Shown piece by piece: positions 5,813 to 61,028 of a DNA stretch of 64,000 nucleotides. Origin of the DNA: a virus (lineage: Duplodnaviria > Heunggongvirae > Uroviricota > Caudoviricetes); the IMG/VR virus record IMGVR_UViG_3300032312_001770, positions 1-64,000 of that record. One strand, 5' to 3'. Under the pieces are notes generated by a model. It saw nothing but the letters and a program-made list of their open reading frames with translations. It was not told where the DNA came from and made no database searches. Both the position numbers and the translations under genes were made by a program. Every line of letters starts with the position of its first letter. Within the stretch, counting starts at the first letter, position 1.

Positions 5813-6519
5813 ACTTCTTCATTATATTTTATATTAAAGTTCCAATCTCTTACAAATGATTCGGCCACTGGTAATAAATTTCCTTTATTGTTTATAAATT
5901 CTGCCTTATACCAACTATAATTTAGAAAATAAAAGTTTTGTTTTAATTCCCAAGATCTTTCAGTTCCTTGGCATTCGTTTTCATATGGTTCTTCACCTTT
6001 ATTTTGTATTCTTAATAATGAATCAATTTTCCAAAAAGCTGATTGATGATTATAATAAAAAGGAGAAGGAACTTCAAATTTCTTAACTCTTATACCATTG
6101 ATGTGGTAATTTGTATTTGATAGTATATAATTATACCAAGGTAAATACTCATTAATATGAATACAATCTACGTTATCAATATTCAAAAAGTTAAGACTTT
6201 CTTCAAATATTGATTTATCTACTCTGAATAAGGGCCAGAAATCATCTTGTGTGTATAATACAGAATTAAATCCTAAATCTTTTAGGTGATTTAGCGCCAC
6301 TACCATTCTTGTAGAAAAGTTTTTAGCTGGATTTTCTTCTTGACCAAAGAATCCAAAATTTAAAGTGGTAAACTTACCATATGGAAATATTTTATTTTCA
6401 GTTAAGATATAAATAGGCATATCTATATCCCAACACCAATTTATTTGATATGATAGTTTTAAACCTTCCCATAAATGTTCATATTTATCACAGGTTTGTA
6501 TTAAGATACATGTTTTCAT
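5809..6519 (-). CDS. hypothetical protein, possible glycosyltransferase (DDF/DxD-like segment TQDDFW)
   Basis: 236 aa; translationally coupled (ATGA overlaps) on both sides. Confidence 0.45.
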   Translation of the reverse strand: MKTCILIQTCDKYEHLWEGLKLSYQINWCWDIDMPIYILTENKIFPYGKFTTLNFGFFGQEENPAKNFSTRMVVALNHLKDLGFNSVLYTQDDFWPLFRVDKSIFEESLNFLNIDNVDCIHINEYLPWYNYILSNTNYHINGIRVKKFEVPSPFYYNHQSAFWKIDSLLRIQNKGEEPYENECQGTERSWELKQNFYFLNYSWYKAEFINNKGNLLPVAESFVRDWNFNIKYNEEV

Positions 6520-7957: not shown

Positions 7958-8842
7958 ATGATAGATTTAAATTATAAAATTGGCGCCGATGGTCAGAAAA
8001 CATTAAGTGCTACGGGTAGTACTATACAATCAGCTTCTATAACAACAAGTGGATTTCCTGTTCAAGTAACTATTACTGGTGACGCTGAACCAGCAAGTGG
8101 TGGATGGCATAAATTACAAATCTATAGAGATTCAACAGCGATTGGTCAGATTTTACAAATAGAATCAAACGGTACTGGTAAAAACATGCCAGTTGCTATG
8201 GTTACAATTGACACACCAGTGGCTGGAACATATACATATTCTGTAAAAATGGTTGGTAGTACTGGTATGTCTGTTACATATAGTGAAAATGGTGAGTTAT
8301 CTATGATTGTTGAAGAGAAAGTTATTAGTTCACATAACTCTTTAAATTGGTTAAGAAGAGATATTAATTCGCCGGTTACTTATTATGGATATTCACATGA
8401 TGTGAATGCTGATGATACTGATGACAACTGGGCTATTAAAAAAGTAACTGTTTCTGGAACTGTTGAAACTGTTAAGTGGACTAATGGTGAATATAATACA
8501 ATTTCTAAATGGAGTGAGCGAGTTGCTTCTTTTGCTACACCTGCAGGGTCTTTAGGTTTAACTTGTAGTAGTAGTGGTTCATCTTTAAATGTTAGTTGGA
8601 ATCAATTAACAGGAGTTGATAATTATCAAGTTATCATTTCATCGAATAATATAATATATTCTGATTTAGGAACTCAACTTTATAATAATAAAAATTTCAA
8701 TTCTAGTCAAATAACTAAAGTAGTAACAAACAGCGGAAGCTATGCTTATTATCATGCCTCCGCTGGTAATACCTATACTATTACTCTAAATGCTGTTAAT
8801 GTTGCAGGTGCATCATCATCAACAGTTACTATTACTGCTTAA
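7958..8842 (+). CDS. Ig/Fn3-like structural protein; paralog of the N-terminal domain of gene 63079..>64000
   Basis: Shared segments LQIYRDSTAIGQILQIES / TIDTPVAGTYTYSVKMV versus LQLYRNSTPIGKIIQAENS / FIDTPSAGNYSYSMRTV. Confidence 0.55.
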   Translation: MIDLNYKIGADGQKTLSATGSTIQSASITTSGFPVQVTITGDAEPASGGWHKLQIYRDSTAIGQILQIESNGTGKNMPVAMVTIDTPVAGTYTYSVKMVGSTGMSVTYSENGELSMIVEEKVISSHNSLNWLRRDINSPVTYYGYSHDVNADDTDDNWAIKKVTVSGTVETVKWTNGEYNTISKWSERVASFATPAGSLGLTCSSSGSSLNVSWNQLTGVDNYQVIISSNNIIYSDLGTQLYNNKNFNSSQITKVVTNSGSYAYYHASAGNTYTITLNAVNVAGASSSTVTITA

Positions 8843-9239
8843 TAACTTCTTTGATAGATTCAGAAACCATTTTCTTGTCTGCTGGAAGAGTTGCAAATTC
8901 TTTCATGATAGCACCAATTTGAGTGATACCGGAATTAACAAGTTCTGTTACTTTAGCAGTAACTTCTTCTTTAGACATTTGTGTTGGAAGGTAAACTTCA
9001 ATAACTGACAACTCTACTTTAGACTTTTCGTCATTAGTTATAGCAATAGTTTCTTTTAGAGACTTAACAGTTTTTGTGAGAATTTTAGTTACCTCAACAT
9101 CTGAAAGGTTATCAGTACCAACATTCTTTTCTACAGTTTGAATTTCTCCTTTAACAACAGATAGTATACTTTTTGCTACCATGTTCTTAGACTTAAATGC
9201 TGTCATAAAGTCTGTGTTGATTTTTTCTTTCAGTGTCAT
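8832..9239 (-). CDS. GatB/YqeY-domain protein
   Basis: Full-length similarity to the YqeY family (MTLKEKINTDFMTAFKSKN...LSDVEV...YLPTQMSKEEV...). Confidence 0.6.
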   Translation of the reverse strand: MTLKEKINTDFMTAFKSKNMVAKSILSVVKGEIQTVEKNVGTDNLSDVEVTKILTKTVKSLKETIAITNDEKSKVELSVIEVYLPTQMSKEEVTAKVTELVNSGITQIGAIMKEFATLPADKKMVSESIKEVIKQ

Positions 9240-9706: not shown

Positions 9707-9718
9707 TTTAATATATAC
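9707..9718 (+). promoter_or_regulatory. TTTAATATATAC promoter-like element 3 nt upstream of the ATG (one of at least 9 copies)
   Basis: Recurs at 7926, 9707, 19038, 36550, 53548 (+) and 29218, 59296, 61014 (-). Confidence 0.45.
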
Positions 9719-11711: not shown

Positions 11712-12146
11712 TTATACTACACGACGGATCTCTCGATCCATATCTCTTTTTTTAATTGTTTCTCTTTTATCGTATAACTTTTTACCTTTAACAACACCTA
11801 ATTTAACCTTAACTCTGTTATGTGCTGTAAATATTTCTAACGGAACCATAGTTGTTCCTTTATCTTGAAGTAATTTTTCAATTCTATCAATCTCTTTACG
11901 ATTAAGAAGTAATTTCTTATCTCTATTTTCATCATGTGGTTGGAATGCGTGACTTTGTGAATATCTAGCCACTTTCATATTCTTAATCCAAATCTCACCT
12001 TTTTGTATATAAGCAAAACAATCAGCAATAGTTACATTACCAGCTCTAATAGATTTAACCTCACTACCTAATAGCATTACACCTGCGTCGAAGTTCTCCA
12101 ACACAAAGTATTCATAATAAGCTTTTCTATTAGTTGTTATTTTCAT
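11712..12146 (-). CDS. smpB: SsrA-binding protein SmpB
   Basis: Clear SmpB signature: YFVLENFDAGVMLLGSEVKSIRAGNVTIADCFAYI...KLLLNRKEIDRI...GTTMVPLEIF...VKVKLGVVKGKKLYDKRETIKKRD. Confidence 0.85.
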   Translation of the reverse strand: MKITTNRKAYYEYFVLENFDAGVMLLGSEVKSIRAGNVTIADCFAYIQKGEIWIKNMKVARYSQSHAFQPHDENRDKKLLLNRKEIDRIEKLLQDKGTTMVPLEIFTAHNRVKVKLGVVKGKKLYDKRETIKKRDMDREIRRVV

Positions 12147-12732
12147 AGTTACAAATATAGTTATAATCTTTTAATTTATCAAATGATACCAATATATCAT
12201 CACCGTTTTCACCAAATCTATTCTTTATTACTTTCATTGATTCTTCTTGCATCACAATAGCAACATCACTCAAAAAAATAGAATGACTACCACCAGAAAA
12301 ATTTGTAATACTGGAATCATCAGCATTCTTTACACTACTATTTAGTGATGTTAATATTAAAAGTTTGTAAGGCGGTGTTTGGGGATAAACACCAGAATAA
12401 TTTGAGTACATATCTTCTCTAATTTTATTTAAGATATTACCTATTTGTCTTTGTCGACCACCTAAATCTTTCCAATTATCAATTGATATATCATTCAAAT
12501 CTAAAACAAGATACTCTGGATTATTTACAGTATCTCCAGTTTCTAAAATTGATTTTAGTTTCAAATCTCTTAAAAAATATTTAAAAGAAAAAGACGAGTC
12601 TATTTCAGGAACCACCAAGTGAGGTAGTTTTGAAATAATCTCGTCTTTGAGTCTTTCCTGCTTAAATCTATATCCTAAAAGAGATATATTAGATTGGCTC
12701 AGTAGGTCAAAAAAATAACCAATATCTTTCAT
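12130..12732 (-). CDS. hypothetical protein
   Basis: 200 aa; overlaps smpB by 17 nt and abuts trx. Confidence 0.4.
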   Translation of the reverse strand: MKDIGYFFDLLSQSNISLLGYRFKQERLKDEIISKLPHLVVPEIDSSFSFKYFLRDLKLKSILETGDTVNNPEYLVLDLNDISIDNWKDLGGRQRQIGNILNKIREDMYSNYSGVYPQTPPYKLLILTSLNSSVKNADDSSITNFSGGSHSIFLSDVAIVMQEESMKVIKNRFGENGDDILVSFDKLKDYNYICNYENNN

Positions 12733-14419: not shown

Positions 14420-15187
14420 TTACATTAACATTTCATCGATAGCGTCAAACTCTTTCTTAGTCTCACGAACTAAGATAGCTCTTCCGTTACGAATTTGTGA
14501 TTTAACTGTTGATAGGTTTAGGTTAAGTTTATCAGAGATATCTTTATAAGACATTCTTTTTAACTCACGCATTTCGATTACATCACGATAAGGATTCTTT
14601 AATTTTTCAATGTGTTTCTTCATGATGTCAGCTTTCTTAGCATGAACCTCATACATAAAGTTGTCACCTTCATCTTCTTGAATGAAGTCTTTCATTGTTG
14701 TTCCTTCATCATCGAACTCAATATCTAATGACATTGTTTTCTTTTCGTTTTTAAGATCTTGTAATGCAAGATTTTTTGCTATTGTAAATAGCCAGGTGGA
14801 GAATTGAGATTTTTCTTTTTCATATTTCTCAATTTTCTCAAAAGCCGCCATGAATGAATCTGTTGAGATATCTTCTGCCTTTTGAGGATCATTAGTAATT
14901 TTAGCTGTAAAATAAACTAATTTTGGATAATACTTTGTGTACAATGAAGAGAAATCTTTACCCGTTCTTTCTCTAAATATTTTTTCTTGTTCACTGAATA
15001 GAATTGCCTTTTTAGGTTCCATATTTTGCCGTTTCTTTTTTTGTTGAAGAGTCATTAATTCATCCTCAATATTGCCTTCTTTTGCCGTTAATGGTGATTG
15101 CTCACCCGAATAATTTATATCATATATATCAGCAAAAGTTGCGCCTATTTCAAAGTTTTTTTCACTTTGATTTTTTATTTCTATCAT
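14420..15187 (-). CDS. RNA polymerase sigma factor, sigma-70/ECF-like family
   Basis: Region 2-like FSTWLFTIAKNLALQDLK and region 4 HTH MSYKDISDKLNLNLSTVKSQIRNGRAILVRE. Confidence 0.75.
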   Translation of the reverse strand: MIEIKNQSEKNFEIGATFADIYDINYSGEQSPLTAKEGNIEDELMTLQQKKKRQNMEPKKAILFSEQEKIFRERTGKDFSSLYTKYYPKLVYFTAKITNDPQKAEDISTDSFMAAFEKIEKYEKEKSQFSTWLFTIAKNLALQDLKNEKKTMSLDIEFDDEGTTMKDFIQEDEGDNFMYEVHAKKADIMKKHIEKLKNPYRDVIEMRELKRMSYKDISDKLNLNLSTVKSQIRNGRAILVRETKKEFDAIDEMLM

Positions 15188-18725: not shown

Positions 18726-18753
18726 TTTACAAAGATAGTTAATTTTTTATTAA

Positions 18754-27553: not shown

Positions 27554-28651
27554 ATGAATATGAATAATAAAACAATTGGAAATGAGGAAATGATGGACAT
27601 CTTTGATGAAACTATATTTACTCGCAAAGGCACTCGCAATAAAAGCACCAAAGAGTATCAAGAAATGATTAAACTTTATAAACTTGACGAAATCGCTATC
27701 CCTGAAGAAGGTCAAGTAGTATCAGCTAAATACGTTGGCATGTCAGCAGGTCAATTTGTGTTCAGTGTAGTTGGATACAAAGACGATGTAAGAGTTGATG
27801 ATAAAGTTGGTGAATCTAAATACTTCAAGAATTTAAACTTGAATGATATGATTGATGTATTAGTTACAGAAGTTAATCAAGATGCTTTTATGATTAAAGG
27901 AAGTGTTTCTTCTCTTTATGAATCAAGAGCTCATGCTAAACTTAAAGCACTTGTTGAAGGTGAATCAGTTATGGTTACAGTTAAGAGTCTTAACCCTGCT
28001 GGTTACGATGTTGAATTAAATCACGGTGGTGTTACACTTCCAGGATTTATGCCAAACACCTTAGCCGGAATCAATAAGTTACACGATACAATGTCTATTG
28101 TAGGACAGAAATTTAGTGTAATGATTGAGTCATATGCTCAAAACGAAGGAACGTATATTGTTTCAAGACGTAAGTATCTTCAAACACTTATTCCTGAGGC
28201 TGTTAAAGAACTTGAATATAATAAAATATATCAAGGTCACGTTACAGGAACTACACCATTTGGTGTGTTCGTAGAGTTTAATGAATGCTTAACTGGAATG
28301 ATTCACAAAGCAAACGTTAATCCAGATTGGGCAGAGAAGTTAACTTCAATCACACCAGGATTTGAAATTGACTTCTACATCAAAGAAGTGATTAAAGATA
28401 AAATTATCTTGACTCAAATTCTTCGTGAGACTCTTTGGGACAACATCAAAAACGGTCAAATCATTGAAGGTACCGTTAAAGACACCAAAGCTTTTGGTAC
28501 TTTAGTAAACCTTGATGATGAGACAGTGGGTCTTATCCACACTTCAGAAATGGAGAAACTTGGTAAGAAATTCACTTCGGGTCAACCGATTAAAGTGAAA
28601 GTTTTAAGTGTAGACCGCATGAGTAGAAAAATATTCTTAACCTTAGGTTAA
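27554..28651 (+). CDS. S1 RNA-binding-domain repeat protein (ribosomal protein S1-like)
   Basis: Four S1-like repeats, e.g. GQVVSAKYVGMSAGQFVFSVVG, GHVTGTTPFGVFVEF, GTVKDTKAFGTLVNL...GQPIKVKVLSVDRMSRKIFLT. Confidence 0.7.
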   Translation: MNMNNKTIGNEEMMDIFDETIFTRKGTRNKSTKEYQEMIKLYKLDEIAIPEEGQVVSAKYVGMSAGQFVFSVVGYKDDVRVDDKVGESKYFKNLNLNDMIDVLVTEVNQDAFMIKGSVSSLYESRAHAKLKALVEGESVMVTVKSLNPAGYDVELNHGGVTLPGFMPNTLAGINKLHDTMSIVGQKFSVMIESYAQNEGTYIVSRRKYLQTLIPEAVKELEYNKIYQGHVTGTTPFGVFVEFNECLTGMIHKANVNPDWAEKLTSITPGFEIDFYIKEVIKDKIILTQILRETLWDNIKNGQIIEGTVKDTKAFGTLVNLDDETVGLIHTSEMEKLGKKFTSGQPIKVKVLSVDRMSRKIFLTLG

Positions 28652-29980: not shown

Positions 29981-30550
29981 TTAAACTTTTTCATCAAAAA
30001 ATACTTCACAGTGGTCTTTAGAATAGATACCAGTAATTCCTCTTGGATAAATCTCACCGCCCATTTCTTTACTTCTACCCCATTTCATAATAGTAGACAT
30101 TTTAGAAAATGATTTAGCCCAAACTTTAATATCAGTTTTAACCCAAGAACCATTTCTTTGAAGTATATCTTTATGATCGGTGTATTCTTCTAGGTGGTGC
30201 CAGATTTCACCAGTATCTTTTCTGAATTCTTTTCTCATATTAGAGATAGATTTTTCATATCTTTTATTGAAATCATTCCATTGTTCTTCAGTCCAAGTTG
30301 ATGAATCTTTAGGATGTTTGGGAACAGTATTTGGTTGATATGAACTCATTCCACCTATTAAAAAAAATTCTTGAGCAATTTTAGGCATAGCATAAAACCC
30401 ACGACTAGCCGGTGGTTGATGATAAGTCTCTGGTTTTTTTGAGAAACCTTTTTGATTTTTCAAATCTAAACCACCAAATCTTACAAAAGTATATATGTCT
30501 TTACCTTTTAACATTATTCTAATATCTTTCTTAATTGAAATTCGCGCCAA
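29981..30550 (-). CDS. hypothetical protein
   Basis: 189 aa. Confidence 0.4.
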   Translation of the reverse strand: MARISIKKDIRIMLKGKDIYTFVRFGGLDLKNQKGFSKKPETYHQPPASRGFYAMPKIAQEFFLIGGMSSYQPNTVPKHPKDSSTWTEEQWNDFNKRYEKSISNMRKEFRKDTGEIWHHLEEYTDHKDILQRNGSWVKTDIKVWAKSFSKMSTIMKWGRSKEMGGEIYPRGITGIYSKDHCEVFFDEKV

Positions 30551-30807
30551 ATATCTAACGGCATAAAATGTTTATCATCAAATATACTAATGAATTCACC
30601 GGTTTTAACACTACTCACACTTACTAAATTCTTTTCAGACATTTCAATACAATCATCAATTTGATATTGTTCGCCAACTTCTAACAGGTATGTCATTCCA
30701 TACATCTTATCAGTTACACAAATTACAATATCTCCTTTTTTATATCTCAACACTTTACAAATGTAAGGAAAGTTTTTAAAATAAAAAAACTCTTTGAAAT
30801 TAATCAA
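30514..30807 (-). CDS. hypothetical protein (start uncertain; 5' end overlaps a terminator hairpin)
   Basis: 97-aa ORF. Confidence 0.3.
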   Translation of the reverse strand: MINFKEFFYFKNFPYICKVLRYKKGDIVICVTDKMYGMTYLLEVGEQYQIDDCIEMSEKNLVSVSSVKTGEFISIFDDKHFMPLDIWREFQLRKILE

Positions 30808-30833: not shown

Positions 30834-32756
30834 TTACTTCTTACCTTTTTTTGAAAGGTCTTCAACAGGCACATCAGTAGTAGGCACTTCTGATTTCACT
30901 GTTGTGTCGTTCATACCCTTACCAATTTGGTTACCCATCATGTTTAAGATTTGAACTCCCAATAATCCGTCTATTGCTCCGTTCCCGCTTTGTCCACCTC
31001 CATTGATTAACAAGTCTGGCATGATTTTCACACCGTTTTTACCAATCTCTTCGGTAACCTTAAATGTTGTAAAGTTTTCTTTACCCATCGCCTCAACGGC
31101 TAGCTTGTATGCTTCTGCTGTAGATTTACCCTTAGAAAGAATAGCCTCAGCTTCAGCATTACCAATCAATGATGTTCTTGTAGCATCTGCTTCTGCTTTC
31201 AACTTAGTAGACTCAGCACTAGCTTCAGCCGCAATTTTAACAGACTCAGCATCACCTTTTGCTTTCTTAACAGAAGCATCAGCGTGACGTTCAGCAATTT
31301 GAACACCTTGGTCAGCTTTTACAACTTCACCCTGCATATCCGCAATCGCAGTTTCTTTTTCAAAAGTTTGACGTGAGATAGCGGCTTTCTTTTGAGTTTC
31401 AAAAGTTACTTCTTGCTCTTGAGCAATCTTACGGTCAGTTAGTGTTTTCATCAACTCTTGTGGTGGTACGATATCACCAATCAAAGTATCAACAGCGTGA
31501 ACGTTATATTCATCTAATACTTTAGAAATGTGTTGTTTTGCCGAATCTTGGCGTTCTTTACGAGTAGTTAAGAAAGCAATAACGTCAGAATCCTGAGCTG
31601 AGTTACGGAAGTAGTTACCAATTGTTGGTTCTAGAACTTGAGATACCAAGTTATTCATATTACCAAATCGAGCAATCACTTTAGGTGCTTCTGTCATTGG
31701 AATGTGAATAATCTGTGATACATCTAAGTTGAATGGGAAACCATCTTTAGAACGAACAGTGATTGTGTTAAGTCCTTTATCTAAATTGTGAGACTCAGTA
31801 CGAGCGTTAGCCCAGTTAAGAACTAAGTTTGTTGTTGGTACTAACTCAATCTTATTTGTGTATTTATTGATTGGATATTTACCAGGTCCGAATGGTTCAG
31901 CCCAAACACCTTTCTGACCTTTACCAACTAAGTTACCGTGTTTAAAGTTAACACCAGTTACGTCAACTCCATCTTCACCAACGAAAGAGATAACAACACC
32001 AACGTGACCAATTGGAATCTCAGTCATTTGCACTTCTTCTACTTGAACAGCCCAAGGGTTTAAGTTATAAGTACCCGCTAAGATAGTTTGTTGTTGTAAA
32101 CCACGATTACCACCTTTTTCTAAGAACATATCAAAATCTTGGAAGTTATTATGTTCTTCAACATTTTTACCAGCGATTTGCCCATTCTCTAATGGCTCAC
32201 CATCTAATGTAGTAACAACACCAACCATATTCTCTTGAATAGTAGCTTGTTTAACAATAGATACTTCAAATAAGTAAGTATTGATTTTATAAACACCATT
32301 TGGAATAAAAGCTGCCTGACGACCTTTCTGACCACCGTTAGTTAAGAAGGTAACAGCATCTTGAAAGTTTTCACATTCTACTCTACGTCCTAAGATACGA
32401 CCTGTTTGTGGAACAGTACCATCTTTAGAAGAAACTAATCCAATATGACCTTCTGGAATAACTACGAAACCATGCATATCGATGTTATATTGCCAAGGCC
32501 ACATCCACCAACGAAGACCCGGAGAAAGCATTTCTGCTTGATAACCTGCTTCGCCATTTACCGCAATAATACGGTCACCTGTAAGTTCTTTGTGTTCTCC
32601 AAAAAGAACAAACTTTTTTGTTACTAAACCAATTTTGTCCTCAGGAACAATAACTAGTCCGAAAAATACTCTTAGGATGAACTTGTACATAACTAAGCAA
32701 AGTACAATTGCTCCAATCCACCAATAGTTTGCCATAAAATTTAAAATGTTACTCAT
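30834..32756 (-). CDS. SPFH/band-7 (flotillin-like) domain protein
   Basis: N-terminal transmembrane helix, duplicated SPFH-like regions, C-terminal Ala/Glu-rich flotillin-type repeats (AEADATRTSLIGNAEAEAILSKGKSTAEAYK). Confidence 0.65.
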   Translation of the reverse strand: MSNILNFMANYWWIGAIVLCLVMYKFILRVFFGLVIVPEDKIGLVTKKFVLFGEHKELTGDRIIAVNGEAGYQAEMLSPGLRWWMWPWQYNIDMHGFVVIPEGHIGLVSSKDGTVPQTGRILGRRVECENFQDAVTFLTNGGQKGRQAAFIPNGVYKINTYLFEVSIVKQATIQENMVGVVTTLDGEPLENGQIAGKNVEEHNNFQDFDMFLEKGGNRGLQQQTILAGTYNLNPWAVQVEEVQMTEIPIGHVGVVISFVGEDGVDVTGVNFKHGNLVGKGQKGVWAEPFGPGKYPINKYTNKIELVPTTNLVLNWANARTESHNLDKGLNTITVRSKDGFPFNLDVSQIIHIPMTEAPKVIARFGNMNNLVSQVLEPTIGNYFRNSAQDSDVIAFLTTRKERQDSAKQHISKVLDEYNVHAVDTLIGDIVPPQELMKTLTDRKIAQEQEVTFETQKKAAISRQTFEKETAIADMQGEVVKADQGVQIAERHADASVKKAKGDAESVKIAAEASAESTKLKAEADATRTSLIGNAEAEAILSKGKSTAEAYKLAVEAMGKENFTTFKVTEEIGKNGVKIMPDLLINGGGQSGNGAIDGLLGVQILNMMGNQIGKGMNDTTVKSEVPTTDVPVEDLSKKGKK

Positions 32757-34434: not shown

Positions 34435-34887
34435 TTATAATTCTATATTTGTTTTATTAAAAATTTCTTGTAAATCTTCCTTAGATAATTTATCAAGTAC
34501 AAAGGTAAGGATATCTTCTGAATTGTCAAATTTATTTAAAATATAATCTTTCATAAATTCGATATAGTCAGGTTTATCAGCTATTCCAAGACTCAACATC
34601 TTTACATTTCGCTGCCATTGAATTCCACCGTTAACAACATATCTACCCTCAATATTTTTAATTTCAGTAGTAAATTTTATACGATAATCGGTTGTAGCTC
34701 CTGTATTATAATCATAAGTTTCCCAATCACGAATAGGCATTTCATGAACTCGTTCTGGATAATTATGTATATTGTCGCACAAATCCTTAGCTTCTTTTAA
34801 ACCAAGACCACTACACTCTTTTATCAACTTAACAAATGCTAACTTGTTAGGAGTTTTTTCGATTAATTTTATTTTAATAGTTTTCAT
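34435..34887 (-). CDS. protein with an N-terminal ribosomal L7/L12 C-terminal-domain-like module
   Basis: [36 protein letters not shown] aligns with the L7/L12 CTD ([36 protein letters not shown]). Confidence 0.5.
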   Translation of the reverse strand: [150 protein letters not shown]

Positions 34888-35555
34888 TAATAGTGTTTTG
34901 ATACAATTGATTGTTCAGATCTTAAATAAGAATCTATAACCATTTGGTCAATTTGATGAATTTGGTCTAATGGTCTGTGATTAAATCTACCTTCATAATT
35001 GTGAATTACGAAGTTAGCCATTCTATTTTTATCTAAATCATCAATTTCATTTCTCATTAGATAAGCAATATCTGAAACTTTATTTTTAGTTAATTCTCTA
35101 CATCTTTCCATTCGTGTAATCTTTGGACAAAAAACAACAATGCTTTTATCCATTAGTTTTTGCCAACTTCTTTCAAATAAGATAGATGAATGAAATATTG
35201 TGTAGATTGATCCTTTATTTTTTACCGAAAACTTCTCATATGCCATCATTAATTCATGTTGAGCAAAATCAATTATGATGTCAAAATCAGATTTAGCTAC
35301 TAATTTAGGATCTATATAACAAGACTTGTTATAAACATGTGGAAGTTTTCTTCTTATCTTGTCGGTAACTGTTATATCATGATTGATAATAAATTTCAAA
35401 ACGATATCTGCCTCAAAAACAGGAATTGTTAATTTTCTGAAAATATTACAAATCTGGTCAGTGCCAGAATATCTATTACCCGAAAGTCCAACTTTTATCA
35501 TTGTATAAAATATATTTAGAACTACAAATATATAAAACATTCTTAGAAAAAACAA
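34887..35555 (-). CDS. hypothetical protein
   Basis: 222 aa. Confidence 0.4.
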   Translation of the reverse strand: MFFLRMFYIFVVLNIFYTMIKVGLSGNRYSGTDQICNIFRKLTIPVFEADIVLKFIINHDITVTDKIRRKLPHVYNKSCYIDPKLVAKSDFDIIIDFAQHELMMAYEKFSVKNKGSIYTIFHSSILFERSWQKLMDKSIVVFCPKITRMERCRELTKNKVSDIAYLMRNEIDDLDKNRMANFVIHNYEGRFNHRPLDQIHQIDQMVIDSYLRSEQSIVSKHY

Positions 35556-41240: not shown

Positions 41241-41795
41241 TTAATCATTCAACAAGGCATTAAGTTTATCTTCTCTTTTGATAGAAGTTATTTCACTATT
41301 TAATAATTGATTCAAATTTTCAACATCACCAAGTTGAACAGATTCTTTCATAAGATTATCAACTTTCTTTTGAAATCTATCATTTAGAATTTGAGTAAAT
41401 AAACAATTGTTAGTTTTTATCTCAACTATATTATTATTCCAGTTATCATTTTCATGTTTACAATATTGAATATGTAATGTATTGAAAGGACCTTCTTTCT
41501 TATTAAGAACTAATAAATTATCTTTATTAATAACTATTGGGAAAAAATGATTAGTTTCAACTTGTGTAAATTTTTTTGGATTAACACCGGTATAAGAATA
41601 AACTTGATTATTTGTTACTTTGTGACCAGTTGATATTTTCTTCAAAATTGTTTTAAGGAGTACCAATTGTTCAACATAAGCTTTGAATCCAAGTTTATAC
41701 ATAGAAACAAAACTTGGAATTGAAATAAGTAGAGCAAACAAAGGAACGACTATTAAAAAAGCCGTAATCCAATCAACAATCGATATCTGTGACAT
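41241..41795 (-). CDS. hypothetical membrane protein
   Basis: N-terminal hydrophobic helix IVDWITAFLIVVPLFALLISIPSFV. Confidence 0.4.
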   Translation of the reverse strand: MSQISIVDWITAFLIVVPLFALLISIPSFVSMYKLGFKAYVEQLVLLKTILKKISTGHKVTNNQVYSYTGVNPKKFTQVETNHFFPIVINKDNLLVLNKKEGPFNTLHIQYCKHENDNWNNNIVEIKTNNCLFTQILNDRFQKKVDNLMKESVQLGDVENLNQLLNSEITSIKREDKLNALLND

Positions 41796-42043: not shown

Positions 42044-42778
42044 TTAAATATTTTTTAAATTGTTTTTAACTTTTTCCATGCCAGTTGATGCCAATTCTTG
42101 ATAATGAGTAAATAGATGTGTCCTATATTCTGGTACATAGAAATCAGGATCTGATAAATCTACATAGTATAACTTAGCACTTTCTTTAGTCAAAAATGGA
42201 ATTGTATTAGCCGGTGATACTTTCATTGAAGTTCCAACAACAATACAAACATCACATTCTTTAGCCGCTTCTGTAGCCATATCAACAAAATCAGGATCTA
42301 GATTTTCACCAAACCAAACAATATGAGGTCTTAGTTGAGAACCACTTGTTGGACATTTATCTCCAATATTAATTGGATTATATCCCACATCAACAACTGT
42401 GTCTAATGGTGATGTTTTATGTTCATACATACAGCCTCTAGCTTTTGTTAGTTCACCATGTAAGTGAATAATATTAGTTGAACCTGCTCTTTCGTGTAAA
42501 TCATCAACATTCTGAGTTACAACAGTTACATCAAAATCTTTTTCTAATTCAGCAATTATTTTATGCGCCAAATTTGGCTCAACATCTTTCATTTGAGCAC
42601 GACACATATTGTAGAAATTAAGAACTTTTTCTTTATCTCTACGCCAACCATCAGGTGTGGCAACATCTTCAATTTTGTGATTAAACCAAAGTCCATCATC
42701 ACCAGTTCTAAAAGTAGCAACGCCACTTTCAGCTGAAACTCCTGCTCCAGTAAAAATCAATACTTTTTTCTTATCCAT
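42044..42778 (-). CDS. Sir2-family NAD-dependent protein deacylase
   Basis: VLIFTGAGVSAESGVATFR NAD-binding motif, HG motif (IIHLHGE), zinc ribbon Cys pairs; 244 aa. Confidence 0.8.
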   Translation of the reverse strand: MDKKKVLIFTGAGVSAESGVATFRTGDDGLWFNHKIEDVATPDGWRRDKEKVLNFYNMCRAQMKDVEPNLAHKIIAELEKDFDVTVVTQNVDDLHERAGSTNIIHLHGELTKARGCMYEHKTSPLDTVVDVGYNPINIGDKCPTSGSQLRPHIVWFGENLDPDFVDMATEAAKECDVCIVVGTSMKVSPANTIPFLTKESAKLYYVDLSDPDFYVPEYRTHLFTHYQELASTGMEKVKNNLKNI

Positions 42779-42865
42779 ACTATTTTACAAAGTTAATTAA
42801 ATAAAGTTTAATAACAAAGAAAGTCTTAATAAATAATATATACATAAAATCTCTTTGTTAAATAG

Positions 42866-52104: not shown

Positions 52105-52135
52105 AAAATCCACTTATTTAATAAGTGGATTTTTA
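52103..52135. terminator. bidirectional terminator palindrome AAAAATCCACTTA-loop-TAAGTGGATTTTT between convergent genes
   Basis: Direct reading of the sequence. Confidence 0.65.
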
Positions 52136-52858
52136 GGTTATAATTAAATTTTCTTTTTTTAATAAAAGATAACCAACCATTCCGGCTACATCTTTAGAGC
52201 AATTTCCCATAGATTCAATTTTAGTTTCATCACCGGTTAATTTAATACCTGATAGTTTTTGTTTACCTAAAATTCGTTTCTCGCCATTACATTTTTTACA
52301 AGGTGTTAAACCTATTTTACCTTTACCGTTACAAAAGTTACAAGAATCACCTTTGTAGTCTTTTCCAGAACCTTCACAGAAGTCACATCCATCATCAGCA
52401 TCAAATGTTCTTAGAATATTACCATCATTGTCTTTAATAATAATTTTAGCAGAAAGGTCTTTACCCGTACCATCACAAGTTTTACACTTAACCCATCTTT
52501 CATATTCCAAAGTACCATCAAAGTCATCATCTATAGTAAGATAAATATCTAAAACTTCATTCTTTTTAAATTTCTCAAAATTAGATTTTTCTTTATTATA
52601 ATCAAAATCTATGTTAATATCAAATAATTCAAAATATTCATTATAGTTTTTACCAAACTTACTTTTAACATCATAGTCTTTTCTTTTCTCACCGCAAAGA
52701 ATATCGTAAGCTTCAGTCATTTCACCAAAAACTATAGGATCGCCATTCTTATCAGGATGATGCGTAAATGATAATTTATAATAAGCTTTTTTAATAGTCT
52801 TTTCATCAGAGTTATTATCAACTCCAAGAATTGAGTAATAGTTTTTATTCAAATTCAT
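52133..52858 (-). CDS. DnaJ-like protein: N-terminal J domain plus CxxCxGxG zinc-finger repeats
   Basis: YYSILGVDNNSDEKTIKKAYYKLSFTHHPDKNGD (HPD motif); CKTCDGTGKD, CDFCEGSGKD, CNFCNGKGK, CKKCNGEK. Confidence 0.65.
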   Translation of the reverse strand: MNLNKNYYSILGVDNNSDEKTIKKAYYKLSFTHHPDKNGDPIVFGEMTEAYDILCGEKRKDYDVKSKFGKNYNEYFELFDINIDFDYNKEKSNFEKFKKNEVLDIYLTIDDDFDGTLEYERWVKCKTCDGTGKDLSAKIIIKDNDGNILRTFDADDGCDFCEGSGKDYKGDSCNFCNGKGKIGLTPCKKCNGEKRILGKQKLSGIKLTGDETKIESMGNCSKDVAGMVGYLLLKKENLIIT

Positions 52859-53060
52859 AGAATCCTACTTCTTTCAGTTTTTGTTTCATCTCTTGTTTGT
52901 TCTTTATTTCGCTAATAATATTACAAACTTGGTGAGATATACCATCACACTCTATAATAAGAGCATCAGGTTTTGTTACATATCCAATTAAATAGTCTAA
53001 TCCATTAGAAGCGGCTGATAATAAACTACTTTTACTTATAAATCTTTTATTGAAACTCAT
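52845..53060 (-). CDS. hypothetical protein
   Basis: 71 aa. Confidence 0.3.
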   Translation of the reverse strand: MSFNKRFISKSSLLSAASNGLDYLIGYVTKPDALIIECDGISHQVCNIISEIKNKQEMKQKLKEVGFYEFE

Positions 53061-53370
53061 CTAATATTTGATTAATTTTTTTCTCTCTAAGTAGTGATTT
53101 GTTTGTTTTTTCAAACTCACCTCTTTTATCTTTATATCCACAATCTTTACAAACTGATATACTGTCTTGAGTTGGTTTGGAACCATCTACCGGTATAAAG
53201 AACTTCCAAGATATGTTTTTACTTTTACAATTAGGACAACCCGATAAATCCTCTAAAGGTTTTATAAAGCCGACCTTTTGTAGTTTTCCTAAATCATATG
53301 TTTTATTACTTTGATTTGGAAATAAACTAAGTAACTTATTAATCATTATTTCTGTATTTCTCTTGAACAT
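53047..53370 (-). CDS. zinc-ribbon protein (CPNC...CKDC)
   Basis: Two CxxC pairs. Confidence 0.4.
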   Translation of the reverse strand: MFKRNTEIMINKLLSLFPNQSNKTYDLGKLQKVGFIKPLEDLSGCPNCKSKNISWKFFIPVDGSKPTQDSISVCKDCGYKDKRGEFEKTNKSLLREKKINQILDEFQ

Positions 53371-53527
53371 ACTTAGCTTTATTAATCTCAGCTCTTCTTT
53401 TTACAGATCTTTTAGTGAACTCTTTTCTATCTCTTAATTCTCTAAGAGTTTTAGTTTTGTCCCATTTTCTTTTAAGGGTTTTAAGAGCTTTCTCAATTGT
53501 TGTTCCTTCTACTTTTACTAATAGCAT
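53339..53527 (-). CDS. rpsU: ribosomal protein bS21 homolog
   Basis: 62 aa; MLLVKVEGTTIEKALKTLKRKWDKTKTLRELRDRKEFTKRSVKRRAEINKAKYV parallels the bacterial S21 pattern (MPVIKVRENE..ALRRFKR.CEK.G.L.E.RRR.FYEKPT..RKR). Confidence 0.7.
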   Translation of the reverse strand: MLLVKVEGTTIEKALKTLKRKWDKTKTLRELRDRKEFTKRSVKRRAEINKAKYVQEKYRNND

Positions 53528-53591
53528 ACTAAAATCTTTTTTTGTATATTATATATTTAATATATAGTTATATCAATAAAATATAACATAG

Positions 53592-55118
53592 TTGAAAATG
53601 ATTAAAAAATATTCAGACTTCTTAAAAGAAAACTTAGAATTCATCATAGAATCTAATGTTGTTTTCTCTGATAACTTCAGAAAAGCAATGACCAGAATTG
53701 AACATCCAATGGCTAAAGCTATTTTAGGTGTTGAAAACAATGATATCACAGTTCAGGCTAACTACCTTGATATTGAATTTTCAAAAAACGATACAATTAC
53801 TTTTACTCCTGATAGAAAAGCTCAAGAGATTTTAGGTGATACTAAAGAAGTAGTTAGATTCACTGGTTCAGGTGGTGGTTGGTTAAAACACAAAGATTCA
53901 AATGCTAAATTATTTACTCGTCTAGGTTATACATTTGAAGAAGGTTCTAATCCTTACCAGCCTAATTCTAGAGATTTGGGTGAAATAGTTGCTAAAGTAA
54001 CATCTGAAACAAGTGGTAAAGTTTATGCTTGGGTTAAATTTAAAGACCAATCAGGAAATGAAGTTGGTGAAGGTGTTTATAATAATGAAAAACTAAGAGT
54101 TGTTGATGAAAGAATTAAAAAGATTTGGTCATCTAATAGACAGGAGATTAAAGTAGGTAGAGCAATGAGAGCACTTTTGAAAGCGGCTGGTGCTGAATTT
54201 GCTGATAAAGACTTTGAACAATTTGTTAATTTATATAAAGCAACTATTGATAAGATGAATGATAAGTTTTCTTATATTGAAGTTGTTAGAGGTTCAGATA
54301 TTGCTCACTGGTATCACAATGAAAATTACTTTCAAAGAAGTGGCACTTTAGGTTCATCTTGTATGGCTAGTGCTCCTGAGAGTTGGTTAGAAGTTTACAC
54401 TGCTAATCCAGAAGTTGGTTTAGTTATTTACAAATCAATTGATGATACTGAAAAAATTATTGGTAGAGCCTTACTTTGGAAATTAAAAGATGGTAAAGAA
54501 TACTTGGATAGAATCTATACAGTAAATGATTCTGATGTTCAATTATTTAGAGATTATGCTAAAGAAAATGGTTGGTACTATAAAGAAAATAACAATAGCT
54601 CAGATAGTAGTAATGCTATAGCACCAGATGGAAGTAGAGTTAACTTAGACTTAATTGTTAATTTAACTGATGCTAGTATGGATAATTTTCCTTACTTAGA
54701 TACACTTAAATATTTTAATCCAAGAAGAAAAACAATTTCAAACTTTGATACTGGTGGTTGTTACTTCTTAGAAGATACAGGCGGTGATTATGTCAGACCT
54801 TGTGATACTTGTGGTGGATCAGGTAGAACAGAATGTCCCGATTGTGATGGAAACGGTGATTATCAATGCGGAAATTGTGATGGTGATGGAGAAGTTGACT
54901 GTAATGAGTGTTATTCTGGTAAAGTAGAGTGTGATAACTGTAGTGGCTCAGGTGAAGTAGATGATGAGCCTTGCCGCGATTGTGATGGCGAAGGTAAAGT
55001 TAACTGTTCAGATTGTGGTGGAAGTGGTAAAGAACAATGCAGTACTTGTGATGGTGACGAAAGAGTAAAATGTGATAACTGTAGTGGTAGAGGACAAGTT
55101 GACTGTTATGACTGCTAA
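53592..55118 (+). CDS. hypothetical protein with an MKMIKKYSDFLKEN N-terminus and a C-terminal array of about 8 CxxCxGxG/CxxCDGDG zinc-knuckle repeats
   Basis: Residues ~405-508: CDTCGGSGRTECPDCDGNGDYQCGNCDGDGEVDCNEC... Confidence 0.5.
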   Translation: MKMIKKYSDFLKENLEFIIESNVVFSDNFRKAMTRIEHPMAKAILGVENNDITVQANYLDIEFSKNDTITFTPDRKAQEILGDTKEVVRFTGSGGGWLKHKDSNAKLFTRLGYTFEEGSNPYQPNSRDLGEIVAKVTSETSGKVYAWVKFKDQSGNEVGEGVYNNEKLRVVDERIKKIWSSNRQEIKVGRAMRALLKAAGAEFADKDFEQFVNLYKATIDKMNDKFSYIEVVRGSDIAHWYHNENYFQRSGTLGSSCMASAPESWLEVYTANPEVGLVIYKSIDDTEKIIGRALLWKLKDGKEYLDRIYTVNDSDVQLFRDYAKENGWYYKENNNSSDSSNAIAPDGSRVNLDLIVNLTDASMDNFPYLDTLKYFNPRRKTISNFDTGGCYFLEDTGGDYVRPCDTCGGSGRTECPDCDGNGDYQCGNCDGDGEVDCNECYSGKVECDNCSGSGEVDDEPCRDCDGEGKVNCSDCGGSGKEQCSTCDGDERVKCDNCSGRGQVDCYDC

Positions 55119-55135
55119 AAATATATTAAAATAGA

Positions 55136-55167
55136 AAAAGCCTCTGATTTCTCAGAGGCTTTTTTTA
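55136..55167 (+). terminator. rho-independent terminator (AAAAGCCTCTGA-loop-TCAGAGGCTTTTTTT)
   Basis: Direct reading of the sequence. Confidence 0.7.
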
Positions 55168-55455
55168 TATTCCTAAGTCATTTAATCTTTTCTGTCTAAT
55201 AATTTGTGTTAGTGAATGAGTGTCATAAATACTAACTTCATACTTACTCATACAGTAGTCATCAATCATTTTATCAAATTTATTATAATCAAAAGCTTCA
55301 ACTTTATCACCAATTAATAACTCATATAAATTAACTGAGTATTTACGTTCTTCATCTCTAGCATTAGCCGCTTTCTCATAAATCTGGCGACTAACGGCGT
55401 CCTTCTTTTCTTTCTTAGCGTTAAGATATAACTCTAATATGTTATCAATTTCCAT
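55165..55455 (-). CDS. hypothetical protein
   Basis: 96 aa. Confidence 0.4.
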   Translation of the reverse strand: MEIDNILELYLNAKKEKKDAVSRQIYEKAANARDEERKYSVNLYELLIGDKVEAFDYNKFDKMIDDYCMSKYEVSIYDTHSLTQIIRQKRLNDLGI

Positions 55456-57193
55456 AATTAAGATTAACTTCTTCTATTGATGAAAACACTTCTTTATTAA
55501 TCTTTAATATTCTATCAAACATCTCTTGGTTCAAAATAGCATGGTGAACAACAAAGATATTAATGTTATAATCATTTGCGAATGATTTTAAGAGCGCCAA
55601 AATAGAATCTATACCTTCGATATCAATTGATGAGAAAACCTCATCTAAGAAGAGTATATTGATATGACGTTTAGTTCTGATTAATTTTAAGTAAGCAATT
55701 AAGATACTAATATTTACTTTCTTAGTTTCACCAGTTGATAAAGAATCGTGTTCAATTTGAGAACCTAATTGTTTAATCTCGGCTGTGAAAGTCTCATCTA
55801 ATTTCACCTCAAATGGTAAACCCATCTTTTTAATATTCTCAGCAATAAAGTGATTGATTGGTTTGATAATACCAGATATGATAGATTTTTTAACGCCATC
55901 TTCACCAAAGATTCGATTTAACTCTTTGTAGTAAAGTTCTTTTTCTTTACAAACTGTGATATTATCAGTACTAACTACTTTCTTTTCTTGAAGTTCTTCA
56001 ATAGTATCTTGAAACTCTTGAATATTGACAGAAGGTGCTGTATTAACTGGAACAGTTTGACTTGCTTTCTTTTGGTTTAATTTATCAATTTCTGATTTAT
56101 AGTTTTTTAATAAGTAACTTAAATCATTAAAAGTAGTAGTTGTAGTTTCGGATAAACCTTTTAGCTTAACTTGTCTTTCTCTAACTTTAGTAACATTAGC
56201 TTCAATTTCAGCTTTGATATTTTCAAATCCTAATTTCTTTTCTTCTAAAGCTGTTCTTAAATTAGCAAAGTGAACTGAATCAAAATCTGTTTTACAAGTT
56301 GGACACTTACCAGAATCATATAAATCTAATTCTCTTTGAACATTCTTAATATCATTCTGACAATTAATAAGTTGTCTTTTTTCTTTATCCATTTCATCAG
56401 AAAGTTCAGAATCCTTTTCTTTGATTCTATCTATCTTTTCTTTCAAAGATTTATAATCATCTTTTCTAGAATTCATCTCACCAGTGATTCTATCAATCTC
56501 TGCTTGAATATCTTCTTTCTCTCTTTCTAAGGCTAATCTAGCCTCTTCTTTTTGTCTTTCAATGGCTTTATCAATAGACCTTTGAATAGATAAAATTGAG
56601 TCATCTAAGGTTCTAATTTCAGCGTCAAAAGAAGCGGCTCTAGTTTTATTGTTTTTTGCGATATCTTTTAAGATACCATTTAAGATATTGATAACTTCTA
56701 AGTTAAACAACTTGTCTAAAAGAAGTTGTTTTTCTTCATTTGATAAAGAGATAAAGTTTTTGAAGTCATTGATAGACATTGAGATAAATGATTTGAAAGT
56801 TTCGATATCCATACCGATATACTTTTCAATCTTTTCATCAATGTTGCCTTTACCGGCTCTTTCATTGACTACTCCATTTTCGGTAAGTTCTAAGACACCA
56901 GGTGATATGCCTCGTTTAATTTCAACATCGGTACCTAAAGAATTAAATTTAATTCTATTAAGTAGTTCACCGTTAATTCTGTTTGGAAGTGTTGATAAAG
57001 TGGCCCATTTCTTTTTACGACCTCTAACTTTACCATAAAGTGTGTAATCGAAGGAATCTAACAAAGATGATTTACCTGCTCCGTTATTTCCAACAAGAAG
57101 AATCAATTCTCCTTTTTCTGTATTTAATTTTAAGACTTGTTCGTTATTACCATAACTTTTGAATCCTCTAATTCCTAATTCACTAATAAGCAT
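55445..57193 (-). CDS. SbcC/Rad50-like recombination ATPase (T4 gp46-like)
   Basis: Walker A LLVGNNGAGKSSLLD, long coiled coil with a CPTC zinc-hook-like motif, C-terminal LFLDEVFSSID (Walker B/D-loop). Confidence 0.65.
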   Translation of the reverse strand: MLISELGIRGFKSYGNNEQVLKLNTEKGELILLVGNNGAGKSSLLDSFDYTLYGKVRGRKKKWATLSTLPNRINGELLNRIKFNSLGTDVEIKRGISPGVLELTENGVVNERAGKGNIDEKIEKYIGMDIETFKSFISMSINDFKNFISLSNEEKQLLLDKLFNLEVINILNGILKDIAKNNKTRAASFDAEIRTLDDSILSIQRSIDKAIERQKEEARLALEREKEDIQAEIDRITGEMNSRKDDYKSLKEKIDRIKEKDSELSDEMDKEKRQLINCQNDIKNVQRELDLYDSGKCPTCKTDFDSVHFANLRTALEEKKLGFENIKAEIEANVTKVRERQVKLKGLSETTTTTFNDLSYLLKNYKSEIDKLNQKKASQTVPVNTAPSVNIQEFQDTIEELQEKKVVSTDNITVCKEKELYYKELNRIFGEDGVKKSIISGIIKPINHFIAENIKKMGLPFEVKLDETFTAEIKQLGSQIEHDSLSTGETKKVNISILIAYLKLIRTKRHINILFLDEVFSSIDIEGIDSILALLKSFANDYNINIFVVHHAILNQEMFDRILKINKEVFSSIEEVNLNYGN

Positions 57194-59292: not shown

Positions 59293-59307
59293 AATGTATA
59301 TATTAAT

Positions 59308-61010: not shown

Positions 61011-61028
61011 AATGTATATATTAAATTG

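Follow-up and report, generated by a model that had tools for sequence, protein, structure and literature searches.

The stretch of DNA analysed here, hereafter the window, covers positions 1 to 64,000 of the IMG/VR virus record IMGVR_UViG_3300032312_001770 and has a G+C content of about 29%. On its minus strand, at 53339..53527, lies an open reading frame (ORF) of 62 codons with an ATG start and a TAA stop, whose product belongs to the ribosomal protein family bS21 and is referred to below as window S21. Its 62 amino acids (aa) are MLLVKVEGTTIEKALKTLKRKWDKTKTLRELRDRKEFTKRSVKRRAEINKAKYVQEKYRNND, and with a calculated isoelectric point of 10.4 it is small and strongly basic, as a bS21 (about 55-71 aa) should be. 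The gene heads a compact minus-strand unit in the order S21, zinc-ribbon gene, 71-aa gene and DnaJ gene, in which each junction overlaps. The other features of the locus are the following.

52133..52858, minus strand: DnaJ-like co-chaperone with J domain and CXXCXGXG zinc finger (PF00226, 61.7 bits), last gene of the unit
52845..53060, minus strand: 71-aa protein, overlapping both neighbours by 14 nucleotides (nt)
53047..53346, minus strand: zinc-ribbon protein (CPNC...CKDC), 99 aa, whose ATG overlaps the S21 stop codon (ATGATTAA)
53544..53551, minus strand: TAATATAC motif, 16 nt upstream of the S21 ATG
53548..53576, minus strand: sigma-70-like sequence TTGATA-17-TATAAT with 11 of 12 matches, overlapping the TAATATAC motif
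53598..55118, plus strand: divergent gene for a 506-aa protein with C-terminal DnaJ-type cysteine-rich repeats (weak DnaJ_CXXCXGXG match)
55445..57193, minus strand: SbcC/Rad50-type ATPase (Pfam SMC_N, AAA_23 and SbcC_Walker_B), the conserved upstream neighbour of the module

Identification of the S21 gene product

The Pfam model PF01165 (Ribosomal_S21) matched window S21 with 42.4 bits and an E-value of 5.6e-11 (gathering cut-off 27), residues 7-54 aligning to profile positions 6-53 of 55, and the NCBIfam equivalog model TIGR00030 matched it with 35.2 bits (cut-off 28.95), residues 6-57 aligning to positions 5-57 of 58. An earlier note on this DNA, made from the letters alone, had read 53339-53527 as a bS21 homolog and had let this reading hang on a significant Ribosomal_S21 match; with both curated models above their cut-offs and the match running along the length, we confirm it. 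The match to phrog_21469 'ribosomal protein S21' in PHROGs was weak only (E 0.002) and was not used as evidence.

With 21 relatives as input, AlphaFold2 predicts a helix at residues 11-33, a loop, and a second helix at 40-58, with a mean predicted local distance difference test score of 82.7. By this model window S21 is composed of two helices and a connecting loop, which is the architecture of bS21. Structure-library searches were uninformative at so small a protein size. The ORF begins at the equivalent of residue 1-2 of cellular bS21 and has no in-frame start upstream of its ATG; the basic/aromatic N-terminal extension known from many huge-phage S21 proteins is absent, and the protein carries no extra domain or extension.

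A search of 5.8 billion proteins gave 210 homologues, all 210 of which contain PF01165. Homologous loci are given our own numbers (L001 and so on) where they have to be told apart. The ratio of nonsynonymous to synonymous substitution rates (dN/dS) was 0.22 between window S21 and L001, 0.10 with L089 and 0.11 with L090, and 0.06-0.15 among these relatives. The S21 gene is under purifying selection, as shown by dN/dS values of 0.06-0.22 among close relatives. Public contigs with the identical S21 protein number at least 16; they come from several metagenomes and agree in gene order.

Phylogenetic position of window S21

In a search against the sequences of solved structures the best match was the bS21 of Flavobacterium johnsoniae (7jil_z, 48.4 bits, residues 2-56 aligned), followed by a second bS21 chain, 9i5v_9, with 43.3 bits. 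The remaining bacterial bS21 chains, including those of Lactococcus, Staphylococcus, Bacillus, E. coli, Pseudomonas, Acinetobacter and others, reached at most 20.6 bits. Cellular genomes were scanned with one genome per species for 185,579 species; 485 relatives were confirmed. The best 80 of the 485 loci were Bacteroidota throughout, with 46-61% identity, and came from Flavobacteriales, Bacteroidales, Lentimicrobiaceae, Prolixibacteraceae and other orders and families. The nearest cellular relatives are chromosomal rpsU genes followed by a gene for a XerC-type recombinase and then by one for HPF (rpsU-xerC-hpf). Judged on its sequence, window S21 is a full-length Bacteroidota-type bS21.

The sub-family of window S21, defined by at least 60% identity, comprises 119 distinct sequences. 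In a neighbour-joining tree of 62 residues, computed without support values from sequences sampled via peptide patterns, these 119 sequences and two IMG/VR members form one clade (hereafter the S21 clade), the sister of which is other viral bS21, and 74 cellular Bacteroidota sequences group by themselves in another. The earlier note had proposed a phylogeny against host S21 as a check, and its outcome is a protein of the Bacteroidota type in a viral clade apart from the 74 cellular sequences. Recent capture from the current host was ruled out, as the S21 clade has at most 61% identity to any cellular sequence found and groups with other viral bS21. The pattern points to a gene taken up from Bacteroidota long ago that has since evolved in phages.

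Residues kept and changed relative to cellular bS21

Tyr53-Val54 of window S21 align to Tyr54-Ile55 of F. johnsoniae bS21. In the latter, Tyr54 stacks on A1534 and Ile55 touches the 3' tail of 16S rRNA, and the two residues steer this tail, the anti-Shine-Dalgarno sequence (ASD), into a pocket formed by bS21, bS18 and bS6; the signature tyrosine is unique to the phylum Bacteroidota (PMC7797042, PMC9976891). We found the tyrosine in 119 of 119 sequences of the S21 clade, 30 of 30 other viral sequences and 72 of 74 cellular sequences, and it is followed by Ile or Val in all 119 clade members. In the bS21 of E. coli and of B. subtilis this position is Lys.

Compared with cellular Bacteroidota bS21, the S21 clade has lost Pro5, has Trp for Phe22 (115 of 119 sequences), Lys or Arg for Gly26, and Lys-Glu for Gln35-Lys36. 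The KPS/T hinge, a conserved bS21 motif which is no formal criterion of the family models, reads K39-R40-S41 in the window, with the flanking Lys and Ser retained. Of the 119 clade sequences 116 are without the hinge proline (Pro40), KPS having become K-R/K-S, whereas 69 of the 74 cellular ones have it. Further, the tail of the clade reads K-K-Y/F-x-x-N-D against Q-L-Q/R-x-x-E-E in the cellular proteins: Lys57 and an aromatic residue at 58 (Tyr or Phe) are each found in 119 of 119 clade sequences, as against Leu57 in 63 of 74 cellular sequences and Gln or Arg at 58. Tails of the K-K-Y/F...N-D type also occur in other IMG/VR viral lineages.

Beyond the hinge, window S21 carries a net charge of +4; the clade averages +4.8 and the 74 cellular Bacteroidota proteins +1.8, related sequences being counted as independent. 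As a weakly basic C-terminal part has been described as a hallmark of Bacteroidetes bS21 (Jha et al. 2021), the phage proteins have reverted on that feature. The more basic C-terminal part and the changed hinge plausibly aid competition for rRNA.

Organisation of the S21 locus

With its start codon inside the end of S21, the zinc-ribbon gene is probably translationally coupled to S21. It is found at the equivalent position in L089 (86% aa identity) and L090 (78%) and is absent from L001-L008; independent gene calls recover it on the contigs with identical S21. The zinc-ribbon protein gave only sub-threshold matches in Pfam and none in PHROGs and the PDB. The 71-aa protein, which has no family match in Pfam or PHROGs, is kept in L001-L004, L089 and L090 (76-87% aa identity). 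Hence both genes are present in subsets of the S21 clade only, whereas the pairing of S21 with DnaJ was seen in 12 of 12 clade loci with enough flanking sequence as well as in the phage genomes LR756502 and LR745206. No terminator-like site was found between S21 and DnaJ. Inheritance of the DnaJ adjacency from Bacteroidota rpsU loci was ruled out, as the cellular loci are rpsU-xerC-hpf.

The neighbours of S21 include DnaJ, SbcC and two very large proteins without a family match in Pfam or PHROGs, and no recognisable structural gene is adjacent. The SbcC/Rad50 protein is 74-96% identical in relatives, and the 506-aa gene is kept in L001-L004, L089, L090 and LR756502. Phage bS21 genes have been described near Hsp20 and Clp genes by Chen et al. 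2022 (PMC9723584), who do not mention DnaJ.

Two minor observations concern the same region. Cysteine-rich CXXCXGXG proteins flank S21 on both sides, the 506-aa one with a long C-terminal run of repeats. The sole terminator-like hairpin of the S21 neighbourhood, at 55135-55164 with a 13-bp stem, is placed where the 506-aa gene and a 96-aa UVR-motif gene converge, between their ends, and is probably bidirectional.

Phage origin of the window

No recognisable cellular core genes were found in the window. Metagenomic contigs (the longest 527 kb) and IMG/VR viral contigs (the longest 476 kb) have the S21 neighbourhood as well, and the module SbcC/Rad50 - S21 - DnaJ - ~1200-aa protein is common to the uncultured phage genomes LR756502 and LR745206 (642 kb and 634 kb). 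Amino acid identities between the window and these two genomes are 75-78% for SbcC, 67-69% for DnaJ, 39% for the 1208-aa protein and 54-57% for S21. Two window proteins match the phage-only families phrog_29329 (308 bits) and phrog_8510 (virion structural protein). No capsid, portal or terminase gene was identified within the 64 kb.

That the window is itself a deposited phage genome was ruled out by megablast, which gave only short matches of ~75% identity at 3-8% coverage; from these matches we conclude that it is a new relative and not LR756502 or LR745206. Both of these count among five genomes of more than 634 kb assigned to the 'Mahaphage' clade and predicted to replicate in Bacteroidetes (Al-Shayeb et al. 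2020, PMC7162821). The window belongs to this clade, represented by the 634-642 kb genomes, and to a very large phage, probably of more than 450 kb, and its host is probably a member of Bacteroidota.

It should be noted that the 735-kb Mahaphage LR756501 (our L171) has at 6001-6201 another, more host-like bS21, with a KPS hinge, an acidic tail and a strong upstream Shine-Dalgarno sequence (SD), AAAGGAGGATAA, at -10.9 kcal/mol, features that the S21 clade of the window does not share. This suggests a separate acquisition in which the host regulatory signal was retained.

Translation and transcription signals

Among 59 window genes only one had an SD-like sequence, taken as ASD pairing of -6 kcal/mol or better. 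The mean ASD pairing in the 25 nt upstream of these genes was -0.07 kcal/mol, against -1.43 kcal/mol for random 25-mers of the window, and the upstream regions are 50-66% A against a background of 34%. This SD-less, A-rich pattern is that of Bacteroidota and of S1-carrying huge phages. The leader of S21 itself is A-rich and has no SD (ASD pairing -0.2 kcal/mol; -0.2 to -3.3 kcal/mol across the window and L001-L008). Cellular rpsU genes have AAGAGGT, at about -7.1 kcal/mol, in many loci of our sample, and AAGGAGGT, at -11.6 kcal/mol, in Flavobacteriaceae; four rpsU loci of Flavobacteriaceae or uncultured Bacteroidetes (L018, L023, L024 and L028) reach -11.6 to -11.7 kcal/mol.

The strong SD of many cellular rpsU genes agrees with the published autoregulation, in which rpsU is preferentially translated by bS21-free ribosomes (McNutt et al. 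2023, PMC9976891). With ribosomes lacking bS21 or its C-terminal region, expression of an SD-less reporter went down about two-fold and that of the SD-bearing rpsU went up several-fold (PMC9976891).

As a side observation, the sole clear SD-like gene of the window is 41241-41795 (minus strand, 184 aa, no family match), with AGGAG at -7.3 kcal/mol; in a Bacteroidota host it would be read best by bS21-free ribosomes.

The sequence upstream of S21 belongs to a motif, TAATATA(TA)C, which has 19 copies in the window where simulations gave 8.5 +/- 3.0. For ten of the 19 copies, placed on the coding strand, a gene starts 3-22 nt further downstream, where simulations gave 0.17 on average and 3 at most; S21 and nine further genes thus have the motif in front of them. 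Examples are given here.

9709-9718, plus strand: TAATATA(TA)C
42834-42843, plus strand: TAATATA(TA)C
53544-53551, minus strand: TAATATA(TA)C, the copy upstream of S21
59296-59305, minus strand: TAATATA(TA)C
61014-61023, minus strand: TAATATA(TA)C

We suggest this motif as a candidate phage promoter or start-site element, which would imply very short, near-leaderless mRNAs. Upstream of S21 it is conserved only partly in relatives. A sigma-70-type promoter at S21 was rejected: such sites number 16 in 3.4 kb of this AT-rich DNA where 17.5 are expected, which is chance level, and the -35 part of the site is not conserved in L001, L089 and L090. The Bacteroidota -7 motif TAnnTTTG was likewise dropped as evidence of the host, with 109 matches against 105.8 expected and about four genes with a match just upstream. 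It stands directly upstream of SmpB (12152-12159, minus strand), NAD-dependent DNA ligase (18730-18737, minus strand), the Sir2-family gene (42788-42795, minus strand) and ORF 29981-30550 (30579-30586, minus strand).

Proposed role of window S21

With some reserve, we favour the reading that window S21 is a working bS21 of a Mahaphage-clade phage which substitutes in the ribosome of a Bacteroidota host and sustains SD-less phage translation. The family type, the key residues and the SD-less genes are seen directly, and from them we infer the binding, the competition and the effect on feedback. During infection the phage protein would take a bS21 site that is vacant or open to exchange on the host's 30S subunits, where Tyr53 and Val54 would keep the ASD sequestered. 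Ribosomes would be held in, or restored to, an ASD-sequestered and fully equipped state, the one best at initiating on SD-less mRNAs, and translation of the phage messages would thereby be sustained. Its competition with host bS21 for 16S rRNA may be aided by the altered hinge and by a C-terminal part of higher positive charge (net +4, about +2 in host proteins).

As the window genes are SD-less with A-rich leaders, their mRNAs are of the kind that an ASD-sequestered ribosome translates. Further, as the phage S21 mRNA is without an SD, its synthesis should be independent of bS21-free ribosomes, on which the rpsU of a Flavobacteriales host depends. By filling bS21-free ribosomes the phage protein might also shut the host rpsU feedback loop and progressively replace host bS21. 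Pelagiphage bS21 is known to enter E. coli 70S ribosomes (PMC6375957), and phage bS21 genes are transcribed in lakes (PMC9723584).

Several points weigh against this reading. Ribosome binding, exchange with host bS21 and the effect on translation are all reached by reasoning. In the only functional assay of any phage bS21, the pelagiphage protein in E. coli gave ribosomes with ~5% activity, which fits inhibition or incompatibility (PMC6375957), and the 30S geometry could differ, so that sequestration of the ASD by the phage protein is not guaranteed. The strong rpsU SD is a trait of Flavobacteriales and not of Bacteroidales; with the host known to phylum, the hijacking of feedback fits only some of the possible hosts. 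The short tree without support values and the charge comparison, with its related sequences taken as independent, belong here as well.

It is conceivable, though we think it unlikely, that the phage makes strictly specialised ribosomes, in which the diverged N-terminal helix and the KKY-R-x-N-D tail near the mRNA exit and the ASD alter the choice of mRNA in favour of phage leaders. The hypothesis that phage S21 directs ribosomes preferentially to phage mRNAs has been published (PMC7162821, PMC9723584, PMC6375957) and is the one preferred in the literature (PMC7162821, PMC9723584). It is in line with the fixed differences of the S21 clade (Pro5 and Pro40 lost, Phe22 to Trp, Gly26 to Lys/Arg, Leu57 to Lys, aromatic 58), with a tail kept across several viral lineages, as Chen et al. 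noted (PMC9723584), and with ten genes including S21 that share a motif 3-22 nt from the start codon, implying very short leaders; bS21 also supports the ASD beside the mRNA exit, and its loss alters the handling of leaderless mRNA in E. coli (PMC10491246). However, we found no feature that separates phage from host leaders, both being SD-less and A-rich in Bacteroidota, the leader lengths are deduced, and relatives share the motif in front of S21 only in part, while the kept Tyr53 and Val54 argue that the basic action is the same as that of the host protein. We would only tentatively speculate, holding it for rather improbable, that the phage bS21 is a takeover tool for the host bS21 feedback circuit and the S21-DnaJ operon, with the zinc-ribbon in some phages, an exchange machine. 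The phage bS21, which has the ASD-sequestering tyrosine and more positive charge than the host protein and is made by fully equipped ribosomes from an SD-less mRNA, would then load bS21-free or exchanging 30S subunits, possibly helped by the co-translated J-domain protein, the strongly SD-dependent host rpsU mRNA would be silenced and host bS21 never replenished, and the ribosome pool would become phage-marked and tuned to very short leaders behind TAATATA(TA)C.

Little credence is given to a host shut-off, where the protein poisons host 30S subunits or blocks initiation on host mRNAs generally. E. coli ribosomes with pelagiphage bS21 had ~5% of normal activity in vitro (PMC6375957) and a more basic C-terminal part could bind tightly and non-productively, but the very large proteome of the phage depends on the same ribosomes, purifying selection has kept the residues on which the host protein relies, the phage carries pro-translation genes (tRNAs, SmpB and a bS1-like protein), and the E. 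coli result is maybe a mere heterologous mismatch according to its authors (PMC6375957). The whole bS21 fold and the rRNA-contacting tyrosine are conserved, with no additional domain or extension, and this leaves only a slight chance for a role off the ribosome, as RNA chaperone or regulator, virion component, or partner of DnaJ and the zinc-ribbon protein on another target. The clade-wide DnaJ operon partnership would suit such a role, yet the other operon neighbours vary, with the zinc-ribbon and 71-aa genes coming and going; encapsidation was raised as a possibility by Chen et al. (PMC9723584), and in Bacillota bS21 has been proposed to be part of the OLE ribonucleoprotein (PMC12054373). 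It seems extremely improbable that the window comes from a bacterial chromosome or a giant plasmid and that the ORF is simply a normal rpsU or a duplicate of one. Some large putative plasmids do have similar translation gene sets (PMC7162821) and the 64 kb yielded no capsid, portal or terminase gene, but the module is common to LR756502, LR745206 and IMG/VR viral contigs, two proteins match phage-only PHROG families (one virion structural), the rpsU-xerC-hpf context of a true Bacteroidota rpsU is missing, viral and cellular sequences fall into separate clades, and none of the 80 best cellular loci from the 185,579 species genomes scanned exceeds 61% identity.

Comparison with known phage and cellular bS21

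Like the window, LR756502 and LR745206 have the SbcC/Rad50 - S21 - DnaJ - ~1200-aa module, an S21 without SD, Bacteroidetes as predicted host phylum, and genes for S1, L7/L12, SmpB and tRNAs (PMC7162821); K-K-S replaces KPS in both genomes. Window S21 differs in belonging to a tighter sub-family with Trp22 and the tail Y-V/I-Q-E/K-K-Y/F-x-x-N-D. It is also unlike the S21 highlighted by Al-Shayeb et al. 2020 (PMC7162821) in being without an N-terminal extension.

The freshwater Bacteroidetes phages of Chen et al. 2022 (PMC9723584) likewise carry a Bacteroidetes-type bS21 with the equivalent of Tyr54 kept, a C-terminus conserved among phages and distinct from that of their hosts, purifying selection or conservation across distant samples, and substitution into host ribosomes as the proposed role. 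These phages are of up to 331 kb and have bS21 among terminase, capsid, protease and portal genes, with late expression, whereas window S21 heads an operon that ends in DnaJ, beside SbcC. The bS21 of Pelagibacter phage HTVC008M (Mizuno et al. 2019, PMC6375957) is again phage-encoded, under purifying selection and of host-lineage origin, and no other phage bS21 has been shown by experiment to become part of 70S ribosomes; it differs in its alphaproteobacterial origin and in a host with another initiation regime. HTVC008M was not among the tblastn matches of window S21 in the phage collection. The F. johnsoniae bS21 (PDB 7JIL chain z), as the best relative of solved structure, has the same two-helix architecture and the Tyr-hydrophobic pair. 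Compared with it, window S21 lacks Pro5, Gly26 and the KPS proline, has Trp for Phe22 and a more basic C-terminal part, and its gene is without the strong SD behind rpsU autoregulation and without the rpsU-xerC-hpf context.

Huge phages with a bS21 of this type and with S1, L7/L12, SmpB and tRNAs have been reported before (Al-Shayeb et al. 2020; Chen et al. 2022), as has the retention of Tyr54 with a phage-specific C-terminus in smaller freshwater Bacteroidetes phages (Chen et al. 2022, PMC9723584). Window S21 is hence a further example of a phenomenon reported for the same phage clade, and the sequence contrasts leave the category of the finding unchanged. In the cited literature we found no description of a clade-wide S21-DnaJ operon, of the loss of the hinge proline, of a more basic C-terminal part despite the kept tyrosine, or of the loss of the rpsU-type SD. 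bS21 is the commonest ribosomal protein gene in viruses. The S21 clade is a sharply defined case in the sole bacterial group with a mechanistic understanding of bS21 (ASD sequestration and rpsU autoregulation in F. johnsoniae), and the contrasts found here, namely the kept tyrosine, the lost hinge proline, the basic tail, the missing SD and the DnaJ partner, are experimental handles in the F. johnsoniae system.

Other genes of the window

The window further holds other translation-related genes and several auxiliary ones.

1062-2018, plus strand: collagen triple-helix repeat protein (PF01391, 78 bits), adjoining the tRNA array
2472..4493, minus strand: tRNA gene array, 10 genes by ARAGORN and 13 by Rfam
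8832-9239, minus strand: YqeY/GatB-like protein
11712..12146, minus strand: SmpB, the tmRNA-binding protein (PF01668, 180.9 bits)
14420-15187, minus strand: sigma-70 family factor
27554..28651, plus strand: bS1-like protein with S1 domains, 365 aa (PF00575, 77.1 bits, 2 matched stretches)
30834-32756, minus strand: SPFH/Band 7 protein, 640 aa
34435..34887, minus strand: L12-like protein, 150 aa (PF00542, 31.1 bits, cut-off 25.9, profile positions 3-37 of 67)
34887-35555, minus strand: dephospho-CoA kinase
42044-42778, minus strand: Sir2-family protein (162.7 bits)

The earlier note had listed an S1-domain protein, an L7/L12-CTD protein, SmpB and a tRNA set as companions of S21. The first of these has bS1 as its best PDB matches, with residues 26-364 aligned overall and 26-362 aligned to a 591-aa bS1, so that it is bS1-like over most of its length; SmpB is unambiguous by its PF01668 score, and the tRNA set is the array at 2472-4493. 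For the L7/L12-CTD protein the first ~35-40 residues do match, but this covers only the first half of the domain, and its PDB matches to L7/L12 are weak (E 1e-3 at best). A tmRNA gene as partner of SmpB was not found in the window by ARAGORN or Rfam. The note had also called this repertoire unusually rich, which does not hold for this kind of phage: S21, S1, L7/L12, SmpB and tRNAs are typical huge-phage genes (Al-Shayeb et al. 2020, PMC7162821), and the set is characteristic of the clade.

In the tRNA array, the three extra Rfam matches are unusually long, at 3104-3231 (128 nt), 3298-3438 (141 nt) and 3451-3562 (112 nt), which suggests introns or insertions. Further, there are four tandem tRNA-Lys genes, three of which measure 84-88 nt, an odd length for a class I tRNA.

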